From sequence record PP526941.1: a stretch of 64,000 nt of DNA; one strand, given 5' to 3'. Shown piece by piece: positions 6,190 through 57,156 of the stretch. Each line of letters opens with the position of its first letter. Position 1 is the stretch's first letter. The notes beneath the pieces are model-generated. The model worked only from the letters and a program-made list of their open reading frames with translations. It was not told the DNA's origin and did no database searches. Both the position numbers and the translations under genes were made by a program. Source of the DNA: Escherichia phage vB_EcoM_ECO78.

Positions 6190-7046
6190 ATTGCCATTTT
6201 CCCTTTAATTGCTGGATGCGATTCATAATTTTCAAGGATAAAATCTTTCGGTTTCATGTATTCAGTTAACCAGTAAAGCTGTGTTTCGGTGTCACAATTT
6301 CCAAACTCTATAGGCCAATCAATTTTAAGTTCACATAGTTCTTTAGGCTCACGACGTAAAATTTCTTTACATTGCTCAGTATGATTCATATAGATGTGAG
6401 TATTACCACCAGAAAATATCAAATCTCCTGGGATAAGATTACACATCTTAGCCACAATATGCGTCAAGGCAGCGTACGAGGCAATATTGAATGGCAAGCC
6501 CAAGAAAACATCTACACTTCTTTGGTACCATTGTAAATCAAGATAACCATTACGCACATTAAACTGATAGAACATATGACAGGGCGGTAATGCCATTTGA
6601 TTGATTTCAGCTGGATTCCATGCTGAAACGATTTGACGTCGATCAGTTGGTAATTTTTTAATACGATCAATAGTTTCAACTAATTGATCCACACCACCGA
6701 AATCACGCCATTGTTTACCGTATATAGGACCAAGTTCACCACTATGATATCCTAGGTCTTTAGCCTGGTTTTCATAGTTATCGTCCCAAATAGTTTTACC
6801 TTGAATAAGACTACCATGAGTGCGAAGACGTAAATCATTAACATTGGTAGAACCGGAAATAAACCATAGAAGCTCAGCAATGCATGCATTCCAGGCGAGC
6901 TTCTTAGTCGTTACTGCAGGAAAACCTTTAGTTAAATCCCAGCGTAATTTAGTACCGAACAAAGCAATTGTTCCTGTGCCCGTTCGGTCATCGGTTTCAT
7001 AGCCGTTTTCAAGAATGTCTTTAATTAAATCTTGGTATTGTTTCAT
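6186..7046 (-). CDS. td: thymidylate synthase, uninterrupted
   Basis: 286 aa, [17 protein letters not shown]..., TS motifs; one continuous ORF; ATG at 7046. Confidence 0.9.
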
Positions 7047-16542: not shown

Positions 16543-17658
16543 ATGGAAAAATTTATGGCAGAGTTTGGACAAGGATATGTCCAAACGCCGTTTTTATCGG
16601 AAAGCAATTCAGTAAGATATAAAATAAGCATAGCGGGTTCTTGCCCGCTTTCTACTGCAGGGCCATACGTTAAATTTCAAGATAATCCTGTAGGAAGTCA
16701 AACATTTAGCGCAGGTCTTCATTTAAGAGTTTTTGATCCTTCCACAGGAGCATTAGTTGATAGTAAGTCATATGCTTTTTCTACTTCAAATGATACTACA
16801 TCAGCTGCTTTTGTTAGTTTCATGAATTCTTTGACGAATAATCGAATTGTTGCTATATTAACTAACGGAAAGGTTAATTTTCCTCCTGAAGTAGTATCTT
16901 GGTTAAGAACCGCCGGAACGTCTGCTTTTCCATCTGATTCTATATTGTCAAGATTCGACGTATCATATGCTGCTTTTTATACTTCTTCTAAAAGAGCTAT
17001 CGCATTAGAGCATGTTAAACTGAGTAATAGAAAAAGCACAGATGATTATCAAACTATTTTAGATGTAGTATTTGACAGTTTAGAAGATGTCGGAGCTACA
17101 GGATTTCCAAGAAGAACGTATGAAAGCGTTGAGCAATTTATGTCAGCTGTTGGTGGAACTAATAACGAAATTGCGCGTCTACCAACTTCAGCTGCTATAA
17201 GTAAATTATCTGATTATAATTTAATTCCTGGTGATGTTCTTTATCTTAAAGCTCAGTTATATGCTGATGCTGATTTACTTGCACTTGGAACTACGAATAT
17301 ATCCATTCGATTTTATAATGCATCAAATGGATATATTTCCTCGACACATGCTGAATTTACTGGGCAAGCTGGGTCATGGGAATTAAAGGAAGATTATGTA
17401 GTTGTTCCAGAAAACGCAGTAGGATTTACGATATACGCACAGAGAACTGCACAAGCTGGCCAAGGTGGCATGAGAAATTTAAGCTTTTCTGAAGTATCAA
17501 GAAATGGCGGCATTTCAAAACCCGCTGAATTTGGCGTCAACGGTATTCGAGTTAATTATATCTGTGAATCTGCTTCACCTCCGGATATAATGGTACTTCC
17601 TACACAAGCATCGTCTAAAACTGGTAAAGTGTTTGGGCAAGAATTTAGAGAAGTATAA
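16543..17658 (+). CDS. 35: long tail fibre hinge connector gp35
   Basis: 371 aa immediately after gene 34. Confidence 0.9.
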   Translation: MEKFMAEFGQGYVQTPFLSESNSVRYKISIAGSCPLSTAGPYVKFQDNPVGSQTFSAGLHLRVFDPSTGALVDSKSYAFSTSNDTTSAAFVSFMNSLTNNRIVAILTNGKVNFPPEVVSWLRTAGTSAFPSDSILSRFDVSYAAFYTSSKRAIALEHVKLSNRKSTDDYQTILDVVFDSLEDVGATGFPRRTYESVEQFMSAVGGTNNEIARLPTSAAISKLSDYNLIPGDVLYLKAQLYADADLLALGTTNISIRFYNASNGYISSTHAEFTGQAGSWELKEDYVVVPENAVGFTIYAQRTAQAGQGGMRNLSFSEVSRNGGISKPAEFGVNGIRVNYICESASPPDIMVLPTQASSKTGKVFGQEFREV

Positions 17659-29682: not shown

Positions 29683-29710
29683 TTTCTGTTCCTCCGTAGT
29701 TGATAGGGTA

Positions 29711-29740
29711 ATAGTACCACGGAGGAACAGTCTTGTAAAC
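29711..29740 (-). promoter_or_regulatory. early promoter with 11-bp spacer/SD inverted repeat
   Basis: GTTTAC aagaCTGTTCCTCCGtgg TACTAT ...CGGAGGAACAG aaa ATG; perfect inverted repeat 29686..29696 with 29720..29730. Confidence 0.5.
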
Positions 29741-34720: not shown

Positions 34721-36538
34721 CTATTGGCTCATCCATTCTTTACGAAGGTCAGCATTATCTCCCATGAGCATTTCAAAAAGCTCTTTCCAATTCTCAGGAA
34801 GTTTAACAACATCATATACTGGGTTTTGAATCATCTCACGATATTCAGATTTTTCCAAAGAGCCAAGTCCCTTAATATAACGGATGCTATGTTTAGGTAG
34901 AGCATCTTTGGCACTCTCATATTCAGCGACTGTATAAAACCATTCTTGTTTTTTACCGACCTGAGCGATGATTACAGGAGTTTTGACGAAGCGAATTCTT
35001 CCTTGTTCAAACAGTTCTGGCCAATTACTAAAAAATCCGAGCAGAGAAGGATAAATGCTTCCTAGACCATCATGGTCGGCATCGGTCATAATTGCAATAT
35101 TATGATAATTCAAGTTTTCAGCCTTTTCACCAAGAACTAATCCGGTGATTGCGCAAATATCAAACAGTTCTTTATTTTTAAGCATATCAGCATATGACAT
35201 ACCCCAACTGTTGAGAACTTTACCACGCAATGGATAACCACCATGAAGTTCTTTATCACGAACATCAATAAGATATCCGATAGCAGAATCACCCTCAGTC
35301 AAGAAAAGAGTAGTGTCAGCATCTTTACCACAAAGATTCGCTTTAATATGTTTATGAACCTTAGCTTTAGAAGCCTTTTTAGCTGCTTTAGTTTCTGCTG
35401 CCTTTTCTGCAGCCAATTTACGAGCCAAAGCAGCTTCAATAATTGGCATTAAAATTGCTTCATTATTTAAAATAGCACGTGAAATCTTTTTAGCATCAAG
35501 CTGAATATGACTACGAATTTCACCAAATGGAGAAGTCAAACGCTCTTTAGTCTGAGAATCAAATCGCATGTTTTTCATATCACGAACAAACATAACGATA
35601 GTCAAACATTCTTTAACACGTGCTTTAGTTACATCAATTTTGAACTTGCGTTTGATTTGTGGAATAAGGTCTTCACAAATATCATCCATAACGCAGTCAA
35701 TATGATGGCCACCATTCTTAGTATGAATGTTATTGACGTATGTTAATTGACGAAAACCATCCGGTGAACGACCAACCGCAATAGAACAATTTTCTTGTTC
35801 TTGAACGATAGCATGCTCATCATATTGGCGTGCGTATTTCTTAAAATTACCCTGAACCTTTTTACCATTAAAGGTAAATTGAATATCAGGATAAACTACT
35901 GCAAGTGTCTGGAGACGATCTAGCGTAATGTCAAGATAAACTTGAGATAGCTCATTAGTTTCAAATGACATAAAATCAGGAATGAAAGTAACACGTGTTC
36001 CTTTCCATTTTCCAGGAATAGTTTCCCATGATTTATTTTCCATGCCATTTGAACAACGAACTACAATATTATTTTGACCATCGCCAGTTTCACCGACAAA
36101 CATCACAGAAAAAATGTTAGTTAAACTAGAACCAACACCGTTCATACCGCCAGTGACGCGTTCTTTATCATCACCGAAGTTACCACCTGCTTTTGGAATA
36201 GTCCAGGCAGCAACAGGACCAGGAATTTCTTCACCGGTAGGTGTTTTAACCATCGCTTGTGGAATACCACGACCGTTATCTTCAACTGTTACTTGATTGT
36301 TTTTAATAGTAACATTAATTTTATTCGCGAATTTAAACTTAGTACGAATACCTTCATCTACTGAGTTATCGATAATTTCATCAATAAGCTTAACAAGACC
36401 AGGTACATACTGAACACTTTCCCATTTACCAAACAGAAAACGCTCATGCATTTCATTAGCGGAAGAGCCAATATACATGCCGCTACGCTTTTTGATATGT
36501 TCAATATCGCTCAGAATTTTAATTTCATTCTTAATCAT
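34721..36538 (-). CDS. 39: DNA topoisomerase II large subunit gp39, single fused ORF
   Basis: Track ORF starts at GTG; ATG at 36538 gives MIKNEIKILSDIEHIKKRSGMYIGS (GyrB-like ATPase plus TOPRIM); continuous ORF. Confidence 0.85.
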   Translation of the reverse strand: MIKNEIKILSDIEHIKKRSGMYIGSSANEMHERFLFGKWESVQYVPGLVKLIDEIIDNSVDEGIRTKFKFANKINVTIKNNQVTVEDNGRGIPQAMVKTPTGEEIPGPVAAWTIPKAGGNFGDDKERVTGGMNGVGSSLTNIFSVMFVGETGDGQNNIVVRCSNGMENKSWETIPGKWKGTRVTFIPDFMSFETNELSQVYLDITLDRLQTLAVVYPDIQFTFNGKKVQGNFKKYARQYDEHAIVQEQENCSIAVGRSPDGFRQLTYVNNIHTKNGGHHIDCVMDDICEDLIPQIKRKFKIDVTKARVKECLTIVMFVRDMKNMRFDSQTKERLTSPFGEIRSHIQLDAKKISRAILNNEAILMPIIEAALARKLAAEKAAETKAAKKASKAKVHKHIKANLCGKDADTTLFLTEGDSAIGYLIDVRDKELHGGYPLRGKVLNSWGMSYADMLKNKELFDICAITGLVLGEKAENLNYHNIAIMTDADHDGLGSIYPSLLGFFSNWPELFEQGRIRFVKTPVIIAQVGKKQEWFYTVAEYESAKDALPKHSIRYIKGLGSLEKSEYREMIQNPVYDVVKLPENWKELFEMLMGDNADLRKEWMSQ

Positions 36539-36565
36539 CACTTATCCTCGTTTGGTTTCGGGAAT

Positions 36566-36880: not shown

Positions 36881-37244
36881 ATTTAATGGCTTGAAGGAGA
36901 CTAATAATTCTCAAGCGACTTCTTTCATCTTTAACTGTAAAAGAAAGAGGGTCGCCAGATTTCATAGTAATAGTACATTCAAAATCAAAATCTTCGGAAA
37001 CTTCTTTGAAGAAGTCAAATTCTTCATCATAAATTAAAACATTACTCTGACAACTATGAAGAATTTTTCCATCATTTCCAGATGCTGTACTAATCATTGT
37101 AACATTATGACCTTTCATATCTTCAACGATAAATTCACTAGTCAATATTACAGCATTAATAGAACTATTCCTATTACTAGCAGAAAGTAGATATTTCTGT
37201 TCTTCACCTTCACGAATGCGATATTTCTTACCGATTTTAAACAT
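36873..37244 (-). CDS. hypothetical protein
   Basis: 123 aa. Confidence 0.45.
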   Translation of the reverse strand: MFKIGKKYRIREGEEQKYLLSASNRNSSINAVILTSEFIVEDMKGHNVTMISTASGNDGKILHSCQSNVLIYDEEFDFFKEVSEDFDFECTITMKSGDPLSFTVKDERSRLRIISLLQAIKFE

Positions 37245-37246
37245 AA

Positions 37247-37423
37247 TTACCCTTTAAGTAAGTCGTAAAATCCACCATTCACATGCTTAGGAGCGGAAAC
37301 TAACCGAATGGCAATCCGATGACAATCAGGACATACATCAGTATCCCTTTCAGAAATTTTCTTGATTTTTTCGTATTCATTCCCGCAATCTTCGGATTGG
37401 CATTTATAATCATACATTGGCAT
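37247..37423 (-). CDS. small zinc-ribbon protein (FmdB-like CxxxxCG...CPDC)
   Basis: 58 aa MPMYDYKCQSEDCGNEYEKIKKISERDTDVCPDCHRIA...; SD AAGGAA; below the track cutoff. Confidence 0.4.
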   Translation of the reverse strand: MPMYDYKCQSEDCGNEYEKIKKISERDTDVCPDCHRIAIRLVSAPKHVNGGFYDLLKG

Positions 37424-37425
37424 AA

Positions 37426-37845
37426 TTATTCCTTAAAGTGTGCTTTCAACATCTGATACAAGGACCATGCCTGTTCATTATTTTCAATAGTAACTTTCAT
37501 GATAGGAAATTCTGTGAAATCTTCTATTTGTTCTTGCTCTTCCTGCTCTTGTTCTTCAGCAGCCTGATATGGATTTTCCACTTCATTAAAGAACCCAGCT
37601 TCGTTAGTAGAGAGCCAGATAAAGTTTTCGTCAAGGATATCACCATGTGTTGCATATCCAACTGTGCCAGTAGATGTCACAATTTTAGTAGGACGACCAA
37701 GATGGTCAACATCTAAAATTTTAAAAGGATGCATACCTAAACGTCGCGCATAGATTCCATTATCAGTATGGTCTTTAATAAAATTTTCTTGAGCTTGTTT
37801 ATTTTTAAATTGATACCATTTATTAACTTCAAATCTAATAGCCAT
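37426..37845 (-). CDS. hypothetical protein with acidic EQ-rich linker
   Basis: 139 aa; contains [16 protein letters not shown]. Confidence 0.45.
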
Positions 37846-38060
37846 TAATAAATTTCCTTCCAGTAAGTTGTGCCATCTTCAGTAATTTCACGGAATACAC
37901 CGTAAATAGGTTGTTTATCACCAACCTTTTCATACACATAAACCGAAGTCAAGTGAGTAAACTTAACGGTGTGTTCCTTTTGAACTACTACCAAATCTGG
38001 ATCGAATAATACATCTTCAAATTCGTCATTAGTGCAATTCTGAACATTTTTACGTTTCAT
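37845..38060 (-). CDS. hypothetical small protein
   Basis: 71 aa; SD GAGGAAA. Confidence 0.45.
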
Positions 38061-38160
38061 TACAATTTCCTCATTAATTGAACATTGGAGCGATGCGTTT
38101 CAGAAGAGTGACAGCACCTTTGGCAAATTTTCCATTTTATTCTCCAAGTTGTTTTCTGTA

Positions 38161-38201
38161 TCAGTAGTTGATATTGATATAGTACCATAATCAACTACTG
38201 A
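38161..38201. repeat. perfect 12-bp inverted repeat (degenerate early-promoter-like element)
   Basis: tcagtagttgat-N17-atcaactactga; loop contains tatagtacca; no GTTTAC at the expected -35. Confidence 0.7.
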
Positions 38202-38217
38202 TGTATATAGTTTTATG

Positions 38218-38230
38218 AAAAAAAAAAAAA
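38218..38230. repeat. A13 homopolymer tract
   Basis: 13 consecutive A on the plus strand, just 3' of the 165-aa gene stop. Confidence 0.9.
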
Positions 38231-38237
38231 TTAAACT

Positions 38238-38735
38238 TTATGCACAGCGGGCTTTGCTATAGTGTTTAATCCAACTTTCAGGAATGACTTTGTATGTTCC
38301 TAAAAATACCGCGTTGTATAACTTAACACCATCTTCTACCCATTGATCGGTAATGTATGCACACATAGCACGAGTACGATGTTTTTGAACAACCCCTTCC
38401 TCATCTTCGGTAAATTCGAATTCATAAGGAGCAATAAACTTAATAGCCTGACCGAGTTTCCACTTAAAGTCTACACCTACATGCGAAGTATCAATCGTTT
38501 CAATTCCTTTAGCAGGAACAGCTTTCAAAAACGCAGACTCAAGAAATTTCGCACGAACATAGCCAAACTGGGGTTTAGACTTTCCATCTTTAGGAATGAT
38601 ACGCACTTTTACTTCAGAATCTTCATATTTAACACCATGTTTAAGCTGAATGCTTACAATTTCAACCAATTTTCCTGCTGCTTTAGAACGGGATTTATCA
38701 GATACACGAGCTAATTCACCAATATTAATAATCAT
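38238..38735 (-). CDS. MotB-like protein (paralog A)
   Basis: 165 aa; C-terminal block AYITDQWVEDGVKLYNAVFLGTYKVIP shared with the next gene. Confidence 0.45.
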   Translation of the reverse strand: MIINIGELARVSDKSRSKAAGKLVEIVSIQLKHGVKYEDSEVKVRIIPKDGKSKPQFGYVRAKFLESAFLKAVPAKGIETIDTSHVGVDFKWKLGQAIKFIAPYEFEFTEDEEGVVQKHRTRAMCAYITDQWVEDGVKLYNAVFLGTYKVIPESWIKHYSKARCA

Positions 38736-38811
38736 AGTTATCTCTCACTTGTTAAAAAGATTTTATACTCCACAGGACCATTATACTCTGGTCCCAAGAG
38801 TTTGTAAACTA

Positions 38812-39354
38812 TTAATTCAAAATAGCTACAACCGCACTACGGGGTACTACGCTAAAATCACCTGCATGAACAACGTTCAGAAGTTCAACGCCATCTTCAA
38901 TCCACTGGTCTGTTACCCATCCACAGACCGAAATAAATGGGGTCTTAATAGCTACAGCACGAGTTAGAAGGTCAGTAGGATCGCATTCTTGGAAGAGGAT
39001 AAGCTCTGCTTCAAAGACTATAGTTTTAATTACTTCATCATTATCTAAGCGTTGTGCTCGAATCACATAAGCTTTATTCTTATCGTGCCAGTTACTTTTT
39101 GAAAAACTTTTAACCACAAACTCGCCTTCACCAAAAACACTAGTCAATGCTTTATAACCCAAACTTAGTTCAGTAGTTTTAATTTCAGTTTCAACCAGTT
39201 TGTAGATTTTGCCAATTTCAATGGTCCGAGCAGTCATAAAGGTTTCCTTAATTTCTAATGGTTTAACAAGAGTGCCGTGCATGCTTGCTATATCCATATC
39301 AAATATTTTATCTATAGGATTTGGGGTGTATTCAGGATTATAATTAAATTTCAT
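38812..39354 (-). CDS. MotB-like protein (paralog B)
   Basis: 180 aa; C-terminal CGWVTDQWIEDGVELLNVVHAGDFSVVP homologous to paralog A. Confidence 0.45.
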   Translation of the reverse strand: MKFNYNPEYTPNPIDKIFDMDIASMHGTLVKPLEIKETFMTARTIEIGKIYKLVETEIKTTELSLGYKALTSVFGEGEFVVKSFSKSNWHDKNKAYVIRAQRLDNDEVIKTIVFEAELILFQECDPTDLLTRAVAIKTPFISVCGWVTDQWIEDGVELLNVVHAGDFSVVPRSAVVAILN

Positions 39355-39356
39355 AA

Positions 39357-39869
39357 TTATCTCATTTCAATAAAATCTACAAGTTCAGCATGGGATTTGC
39401 GGAACATTACTTGGTGTCCGCCAATGATAACTTCATCTTCAGGAACTTCATAAATCGCAATGTACATTCCACGATCTTTTAAGTCTTCACGCTCTTCTCG
39501 GGTGAACCATCTCATCATATCATATTCACTAGCGAAAGCAAAATGGTATAATGCAATAAACCGCGATGGAATATACCTTTCAGACGGTGAATAATTTTTA
39601 TCCCATTTAGTTTTAATAACATCATTAGCATTTTCAACTAATAACTTATCATCGTGTGGAATAGGAATACTTTCATGGCTTTCATAATTATCGCTATGAT
39701 GATGAAATGACGATGAATTAATACCGCAAAATTTTAGCCAAGTTCGAGTTTTCATAGAATCAAATCCACGATAAGGAGTTGATTGAACGCATAACTCTTG
39801 CCTAATTTTCACTATACCACTATCATCATTTAATGCGCTAAACGATGATTCAACACGATAAATTTTCAT
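39357..39869 (-). CDS. hypothetical protein
   Basis: Track ORF starts at TTG; ATG at 39869 (MKIYRVESSF...) has SD GAGGA. Confidence 0.45.
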   Translation of the reverse strand: MKIYRVESSFSALNDDSGIVKIRQELCVQSTPYRGFDSMKTRTWLKFCGINSSSFHHHSDNYESHESIPIPHDDKLLVENANDVIKTKWDKNYSPSERYIPSRFIALYHFAFASEYDMMRWFTREEREDLKDRGMYIAIYEVPEDEVIIGGHQVMFRKSHAELVDFIEMR

Positions 39870-51370: not shown

Positions 51371-51428
51371 AACAATCTCCTCATTTAACCAACAAGACTA
51401 CTATACCATAGTCTTGTCAACTTGTAAA

Positions 51429-57126: not shown

Positions 57127-57156
57127 ATAGTACCATGGAAGAACAGTCTTGTAAAC
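57127..57156 (-). promoter_or_regulatory. early promoter with spacer/SD inverted repeat
   Basis: GTTTAC aagactGTTCTTCCatgg TACTAT ...GGAGGAAC; arms 57137..57144 and 57104..57111, 8 bp with one G-U. Confidence 0.5.

Follow-up and report, generated by a model that had tools for sequence, protein, structure and literature searches.

A probable early promoter inside a stem-loop upstream of cef in Escherichia phage vB_EcoM_ECO78

Early promoters and stem-loops in T-even phages

Elements that combine an early promoter with a stem-loop are known as PeSLs (promoter-early stem-loops). The stem-loop may lie between the -35 and -10 sequences or overlap the -10 box, and one such stem-loop, from RB49/phi1, matched the rrnB T1 terminator in how strongly it reduced the expression of a downstream lacZ gene (Arbiol et al. 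2010, PMC2839356). PeSLs are also present in T4 and PST, with the promoter consensus TTTACW-N17-TAYWAT (Comeau et al. 2014, PMC4122927). Here, a site of this kind is described in a stretch of 64,000 nucleotides from Escherichia phage vB_EcoM_ECO78 (PP526941.1), referred to as the window; this phage is a T-even phage of the genus Tequatrovirus. The site is an inverted repeat at 38160-38202 in the 177-bp gap between the genes motB and cef. It is read as the early promoter of the cef-goF-39.x block, placed inside a stem-loop and belonging to the PeSL type, among those members whose stem-loop overlaps the -10 box. This reading is given a probability of roughly 0.7, with promoter activity and hairpin function both predicted from sequence comparison.

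The site shares several properties with PeSLs. It is an intergenic composite of an A/T-rich block, a sigma-70-like early promoter, a stable stem-loop and a Shine-Dalgarno sequence with ATG, and its promoter fits the T4/PST consensus at 11 of the 12 positions. It also lies in a variable region, between the motB stop at 38238 and the GGAG and ATG at 38145 and 38135, where an adjacent open reading frame (ORF) of 89 amino acids is present or absent among relatives. On the other hand, the stem-loops of T4 and PST are described as lying just upstream of the promoter and as often having the form AGNA-loop-TCNT (PMC4122927), whereas the stem described here brackets the -10 sequence and its 3' arm is the promoter's own +1 motif. 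The PeSL papers stress recombination and gene shuffling. In contrast to such a crossover role, the only local indel here is a 208-bp deletion that joins about 25 nt downstream of the stem, outside the element. An orthologous hairpin kept across about ten genera with changed arms, as set out below, is not described in the available parts of PMC2839356 or PMC4122927.

Early promoters of T4 are of the UP/-35/TGn/-10 type, with UP elements located between -40 and -60 (reviewed by Hinton 2010, PMC2988021). The T4 motA early promoter has this layout with the same spacing as the ECO78 site, and its -10/+1 half is identical (TGGTACTATA, start region ATCAACTACTGATACAG); in the T4 motA record Z48569, the depositors annotate a -35 and a -10 signal, the latter being the same TACTAT. 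The two promoters differ in the -35 (ATATAC here, GTTTAC in motA) and in the UP element (T13 here, A5T5-6 in motA). In addition, a canonical terminator precedes the motA promoter, whose spacer is not complementary to the +1 region (-1.9 kcal/mol), unlike that of the palindrome site.

For four T4 genes (e, soc, 49 and I-TevI), it is established that a promoter lies within the 5' strand of an RNA structure with an inhibitory effect (Uzan and Miller 2010, PMC3014915). The arrangement between motB and cef is similar, in that the promoter lies in or near the 5' strand of a helix, so that long transcripts from upstream would fold and promoter-proximal ones would not; the 5' strand is likewise upstream of an internal start, a likeness that depends on the predicted start site. 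However, these four T4 genes use late promoters and the 3' strand covers the Shine-Dalgarno sequence or the AUG, whereas the promoter described here is early and its 3' arm does not. With intrinsic terminators, the site shares a stable hairpin at the 3' end of a gene, but the stem is A/T-rich and no U-run is present on the transcribed strand.

For T4 itself, the table of middle promoters in PMC2988021 contains none between P39 (5349) and Pdex.2 (10058), the records NC_000866 and AF158101 annotate only coding genes in this region, and a cef promoter is not mentioned in the MotB, GoF and T4 omics papers.

Promoter elements and the inverted repeat between motB and cef

The surrounding genes (gene 39, the 39.x genes, goF, cef, motB, two motB-adjacent ORFs and dexA) are all on the minus strand. 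As the promoter family is on this strand as well, the strings reported in the original prediction, tcagtagttgat-N17-atcaactactga at 38161-38201, are plus-strand spellings. Read on the minus strand, the site is TTTTTTTTTTTTT-CATAAAACT-ATATAC-atcagtagttgatta-TGG-TACTAT-atcaat-ATCAACTACTGAT. The UP position, at about -58 to -38, is A/T-rich, consists of a T13 run plus CATAAAAC and aligns with the aaaaatttttcacaaaac of the family; its proximal element, the -40 A-rich block CATAAAACT (38209-38217), fits the family's CACAAAAC(g/t). ATATAC in T4 notation (38208-38203), corresponding to the -35 hexamer TATACA (38202-38207), occupies the GTTTAC slot. The 17-nt spacer (38201-38185) includes the extended -10 TGG (38187-38185) and is followed by the -10 sequence TACTAT (38184-38179), both assigned by family alignment. 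Family geometry places the predicted transcription start at A 38172, 7 nt after the -10 sequence, which is the first base of the 3' arm of the repeat.

The family was defined strictly by seven promoters in the window with the layout UP-GTTTAC-N15-TGGTACTATA-N5-ATCAACTAC, or more fully aaaaatttttcacaaaac-GTTTAC-N15-TGGTACTATA-N5-ATCAACTAC(T/G)GA, and a looser pattern brings the number of early promoters in the window to 16. The palindrome site fits the strict layout with the same spacing, including the distance of 15 nt between ATATAC and TGGTACTATA that is found in every family member, and the family membership that had been proposed for it is thereby borne out. In a leave-one-out weight matrix, it scores 22.9 bits and ranks 10th of 16, a score that is reached at only 16 of approximately 128,000 positions in the window. 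The usual -35 had been reported as missing. ATATAC matches GTTTAC at four of six positions, as does TATACA with TTGACA, indicating that the -35 is weakened rather than lost.

These observations bear on the proposal that the promoter has decayed and become inactive, leaving only a structure for RNA processing or termination. The departure of the -35 from GTTTAC would agree with decay, as would the failure of a consensus scan to call the site and the deletion, in the window phage and in T4, of the ORF that the promoter originally served. However, the UP element, TGn, -10, spacing and +1 motif are intact and in register, the score lies in the middle of the family, and phages that keep the 89-amino-acid ORF carry an identical promoter, ATATAC included. 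Moreover, the orthologous promoters in other genera keep xTxTAC-N15-TGn-TAnnnT. A pattern search from the palindrome site to the end of gene 39 found no other promoter of the early family, and the site is therefore, read-through aside, the only one serving cef-goF-39.x and gene 39. Decay is thus scarcely credible, and the reading as a promoter of the early family is retained.

The 12-bp perfect palindrome of the original prediction is present, although the perfect repeat is in fact one base longer on each side, with 13-bp arms at 38160-38172 and 38190-38202 and a 17-nt loop. On the minus strand, the 5' arm ATCAGTAGTTGAT (38190-38202) falls in the promoter spacer, at -30 to -18 from the predicted start, and the 3' arm ATCAACTACTGAT (38160-38172) is the conserved initial transcribed (+1) motif of the family. 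The spacer thus holds the exact reverse complement of the +1 motif, as had been noted. When mismatches are allowed, the repeat extends to a 43-bp near-palindrome with 20-nt arms and 85% complementarity. Perfect inverted repeats with arms of at least 12 bp and loops of 3-30 nt are rare in the window, which has only three, and two of these three are carried by early promoters; first-order Markov simulations give a mean of 0.28 overlapping 12-mer matches per window, versus four observed. The remaining repeat, AATATATCCATT / AATGGATATATT with an 18-nt loop, is found on the plus strand at 17296-17337 within an ORF of 371 amino acids (16543-17658), where no promoter is present.

As minus-strand RNA, the repeat folds into a hairpin of -20.2 kcal/mol (z = -5.5), and none of 200 shuffled sequences was as stable. 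The hairpin consists of 13 and 5 bp separated by a 2x2 internal loop, the inner helix being UGGUA/UAUCA with one G-U pair, and both TGn and the -10 sequence are located in the loop. The suggestion of an RNA-processing or terminator-like structure comes close to the role proposed for the PeSL class, but a canonical intrinsic terminator is not present. Behind the stem, the minus strand reads ACAGAAAACAAC and has no U-run (the plus strand has UUUU 9 nt away), and a terminator scan of 37000-39500 returned none, by which intrinsic termination as an explanation of the site was rejected. Processing sites of RNase III have about two helical turns of double-stranded RNA, often interrupted by an internal loop; the orthologous helices in other genera are only 8-14 bp long, and RNase III processing can therefore not be the general role.

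The symmetry of the repeat also places an extended -10, TGATATAGT, on the plus strand, followed 6 nt further on by ATCAACTACTGAT, which raises the option of a divergent promoter pair, the plus-strand member of which would produce RNA antisense to the 3' end of motB. The plus-strand TGnTATAGT matches TATAAT at five of six positions and is accompanied, by symmetry, by the same +1 motif, and 22 antisense start sites have been reported in T4 by differential RNA sequencing (bioRxiv 10.1101/2024.04.04.588121), a kind of data that is publicly available for T4 as GSE255091. Nevertheless, the plus strand has no -35 (TCTGTA, two of six) and no UP element, the short -10-centred palindromes of other genera do not create a TGn on the opposite strand, the plus strand at the palindrome has no ORF of note, and Rfam gave no match in 37700-38900 even at E <= 1. 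A divergent pair is consequently considered very improbable, and the minus-strand promoter remains the preferred interpretation.

The A13 tract reported just 3' of the MotB-like stop codon is indeed located at 38218-38230, 7 nt from the motB stop. It starts 16 nt past the 12-bp repeat and 15 nt past the 13-bp repeat, rather than 17 nt away. On the minus strand, it is a T13 run in the distal A/T-rich UP zone, at about -58 to -46. In 24 relatives read directly, the run was T5 (in T4), T6 (the commonest), T12 or T13, while the 60 nt from the -35 onward were identical through the end of the 3' arm and only the T-run differed; the search pattern with which these 24 sequences were collected fixed part of the 5' arm, so the identity of that part is not independent evidence. 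The tract had been suggested to be prone to slippage, which the length variation supports. The T13 run may thus be the upstream A/T element of the promoter, lengthened by replication slippage from the T5-T6 of most relatives. The natural series of alleles from T5 to T13 bears on how the length of the UP element affects an early promoter. An A/T-rich hairpin over the motB stop (38214-38275, minus strand), with the T13 run directly after it, has the look of a weak terminator; it was rejected as such, since its folding energy of -9.2 kcal/mol (z = -1.0) was no better than that of shuffled sequences.

Hairpins at other early promoters and in other genera

The original prediction described the promoter as converted into a palindrome, as though this were peculiar to the locus, but about half of the early promoters in the window are alike. 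Strong pairing between the spacer and downstream sequence was found at 8 of the 16. Over all 16 promoters, spacers pair with their own partners at a mean of -10.4 kcal/mol versus -6.5 kcal/mol with swapped partners, and none of 20,000 permutations was as low. At four of the eight strong cases (29716, 57132, 39902 and 518), the pairing partner is the Shine-Dalgarno region of the next gene, as in the T4 e, soc, 49 and I-TevI type. The clearest of these is the 29716 promoter (29686-29730, minus strand), which carries a second perfect 12-bp inverted repeat, CTGTTCCTCCGT / ACGGAGGAACAG. Its spacer exactly complements the Shine-Dalgarno region (GGAGG) belonging to the gene that the promoter drives, and read-through transcripts should therefore hide that ribosome-binding site. 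The pairing at 57132, 39902 and 518 is similar but less perfect.

At the other four strong cases, the partner is the region just past the -10 sequence. Besides the palindrome site, these are the promoters with minus-strand -10 positions at 51405, 50917 and 8569, in which hairpins of 9-11 bp enclose or overlap the -10 sequence, with the arms ACAAGACTA/TAGTCTTGT, CTGATAGAgTT/AAtTCTATCAG and GGGTAGTAGT/ACTATTACCC, respectively. The last hairpin includes one G-U pair, which is present in the sense RNA only. In the eight strong cases, the sense RNA duplex was never weaker than the antisense duplex (mean difference of -3.0 kcal/mol, Wilcoxon p = 0.016), in a set picked on folding energy, which may inflate the asymmetry. 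Such a bias towards the sense strand suggests that the pairing acts in RNA and not in symmetric DNA.

Three further promoters on the minus strand, 26594 (motA), 9294 and 47195, are preceded by a canonical G+C-rich terminator hairpin, of which the T-run merges into the UP element, and all three are without embedded spacer/leader pairing. A complementarity between the two arrangements, terminator or embedded hairpin, was considered and not retained, because the numbers are too small (hypergeometric p of about 0.1, rank correlation not significant).

The element is present without change in T4 at 6582-6624, with a predicted start at T4 6594 on the minus strand. Identity to a 78-nt core reaches at least 95% in 491 of the 533 phage records that match it, T2, T4 and T6 included; it is at least 99% in 268 and 95-99% in 223 of them. 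Among the 30 records listed, no regulatory annotation lies under the core, which mostly overlaps no feature and in four records only a hypothetical protein; one partial match among these 30 falls on the -10 signal of another promoter.

A search of viral contigs based on MotB reached only seven loci, and the cef upstream regions of 12 other genera were therefore collected by tblastn with Cef against phage records. At the orthologous cef promoter, xTxTAC-N15-TGn-TAnnnT is found without length change in 11 genera, that of the window included, the -35 slot being GTATAC, ATGTAC, TTGTAC, GTGTAC or GTTTAC in the orthologues. In 10 of the 11, the spacer is complementary to sequence just past the -10, which lies in or next to the loop of a hairpin of 8-14 bp. 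The same geometry and a hairpin enclosing the -10 are present in Mosigvirus, Dhakavirus, Winklervirus, Kanagawavirus, Moonvirus, Karamvirus, Muldoonvirus, Gualtarvirus and a Klebsiella phage. The arms differ by genus (GGTCTAT, TAGGGTA, TTGGTGTAGGAG, TGGTAGGAGC, GATAGGGTA, AGGGCTAT and GATAGGTCT, versus ATCAGTAGTTGAT here). A test of pairing with own and swapped partners was used in place of a test of a single consensus structure, and the spacers paired with downstream sequence at a mean of -16.4 kcal/mol within their own genus versus -8.7 kcal/mol with that of another genus, the observed value being reached by none of 100,000 permutations. Hairpins at the same place with different arms in 10 of 11 genera indicate that the repeat is not a one-off scar of recombination, as had been suggested. 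The hairpin at this site is regarded as maintained and not as accidental.

The variation of the arms is also relevant to a role at the level of DNA, in which the palindrome would turn the promoter off, either by binding a dimeric protein of phage or host as an operator or by forming a cruciform. The 13-bp half-sites flank the -10, and a bound dimer or a cruciform would block RNA polymerase and might take part in early-promoter shut-off. In favour of this, the -10 lies at the centre of two perfect arms, and how early promoters are shut off is not completely understood (PMC3014915). The PeSL authors speculated that the stem-loop could be a target of DNA-binding proteins (PMC2839356), and MotB, encoded directly upstream, is a DNA-binding protein (PMC6070864). 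Nonetheless, the arms vary between genera and between promoters of one genome, leaving no common recognition sequence for such a protein, and the length and register of the helix vary as well. Furthermore, the sibling hairpins have G-U pairs in the sense RNA only and lose on average 3 kcal/mol of stability on the other strand, which is unexpected for symmetric DNA. A DNA-level role is therefore regarded as unlikely compared with a role of the hairpin in RNA.

Templated mutation by template switching is known from the quasi-palindromes of T4 rII. A functionless quasi-palindrome could accordingly be kept perfect by intrastrand template switching during replication, with changes in one arm copied to the other without selection. 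The perfect 13-bp arms, invariant across hundreds of Tequatrovirus genomes, would fit such a process, which would also yield seemingly compensatory double changes, and the palindrome locus itself has neither a U-run nor sequestration of a ribosome-binding site. This explanation, however, requires that many promoters each had a partial palindrome to begin with. It leaves unexplained the placement across the -10 or the Shine-Dalgarno sequence (own versus swapped partners, p < 5e-5), the strand asymmetry in the sense RNA and the hairpin kept at the orthologous site in 10 of 11 genera. A purely neutral origin is for these reasons deemed improbable, and a functional hairpin around the promoter is preferred.

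Proposed role of the hairpin at the motB/cef boundary

The gene upstream of the palindrome, motB (38238-38735, minus strand; stop TAA at 38240-38238), has its own promoter, called strong (TTTACA-17-TATAAT, 38808-38780, minus strand), and no intrinsic terminator was found by the terminator scan between that promoter and the palindrome. Transcripts from the motB promoter would contain both arms and could form the -20 kcal/mol hairpin between motB and cef. At the embedded promoter, E. coli sigma-70 RNA polymerase would start at about A 38172. The 5' arm lies upstream of this predicted start and would thus be absent from the resulting RNA, which would begin with the 3' arm and have an unstructured leader. 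The hairpin may act on read-through RNA as an attenuator or insulator, as a stabiliser of the 3' end of the motB mRNA, or as both, while the embedded promoter would restart transcription with an open leader. Sibling promoters would extend this design in that their spacer pairs with the next gene's Shine-Dalgarno sequence. A role of the hairpin in read-through RNA, as proposed and partly tested for PeSL stem-loops, is the most likely one by analogy, and termination, if it occurs, would not be canonical since no U-run is present.

The promoter lies on the minus strand, 112 nt upstream of the ATG of cef (37845-38060, minus strand, 71 amino acids), the first intact gene that it would serve, followed by goF and the 39.x genes. 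The leader (38100-38145, minus strand) contains GGAG at 38145-38142 and a remnant ORF of 11 codons (MENLPKVLSLF), from ATG at 38135 to TGA at 38100. According to an alignment with phage REP4, this ORF is the leftover of the 89-amino-acid ORF after the 208-bp deletion. The complete ORF, assigned to phrog_3720 (function unknown), is kept between motB and cef in many Tequatrovirus relatives such as REP4, where the promoter is 37 nt upstream of it. The deletion is common to the window phage and T4, and its junction, in which ATGGAAAA is joined to TTTGCC, is at a short A-run. As a result, the promoter now feeds cef directly. Further along, gene 39 (34721-36541, minus strand), which encodes the topoisomerase large subunit, is a single ORF of 606 amino acids that is split into genes 39 and 60 in T4, indicating that the window phage is T2/T6-like at the topoisomerase locus.

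Several points weigh against the reading of the site as an early promoter inside a functional stem-loop. The start at A 38172 and the promoter activity are predictions from family membership. The -35, with four of six matches to TTGACA, is weaker than that of sibling promoters, and a simple sigma-70 scan passed over the site (8/12 versus a threshold of 9). Between the end of the 3' arm at 38160 and the GGAG lie 14 nt, and the arm would therefore not sequester the ribosome-binding site; the missing U-run means that the hairpin is not a canonical intrinsic terminator, and attenuation is assumed by analogy with a different PeSL, that of RB49/phi1. As for the sense-strand bias, the set was chosen on energy, as mentioned, and the arms of the palindrome are all Watson-Crick, which makes its outer stem silent on sense versus antisense. 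Among the genera, Jiaodavirus has no hairpin at the cef promoter. A fixed-register count over the 11 genera gave 70% paired positions versus 65% in shuffles, with a covariation score reached by 9 of 500 shuffles; this support is only modest because the register of the helix shifts by 1-5 nt between genera. Finally, in Bragavirus (Proteus phage Pm5461), the region upstream of cef has a stem-loop, AAAGAGGT...ACCTCTTT, and a T-run around the -35 GTTTAC rather than around the -10. In the Pm5461 record, the promoter is annotated, having been found with MEME, and terminator and promoter overlap there in another register.

Taken together, the earlier observation is confirmed and its interpretation is partly supported, being right on a structure-forming and slippage-prone site and wrong on decay and on loss of the -35. 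The apparent oddity of a palindromised promoter is removed, as this is a normal and widely conserved T-even design, unchanged in T4, T2 and T6. The element belongs to a published class, to which the upkeep of the hairpin across genera and the sense-strand bias are a modest addition. They argue for a function of promoter-embedded hairpins in RNA, beyond a role as linkers for recombination, and T4 6582-6624 offers a concrete site of this kind in the best-studied phage. A broader proposal, that hairpins enclosing the -10 or pairing spacer with leader are a selected, general device of Tevenvirinae early promoters, kept across about ten genera by compensatory change, is put forward tentatively and is at present rather doubtful. 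If it is true, the same gene would be handled differently according to the origin of its transcript, with read-through RNA folded and promoter-proximal RNA open; alternatively, the device may contribute to the rapid shutting-off of early promoters, which is not yet explained. The meaning of PeSLs would then shift from recombination linkers to a regulatory code.

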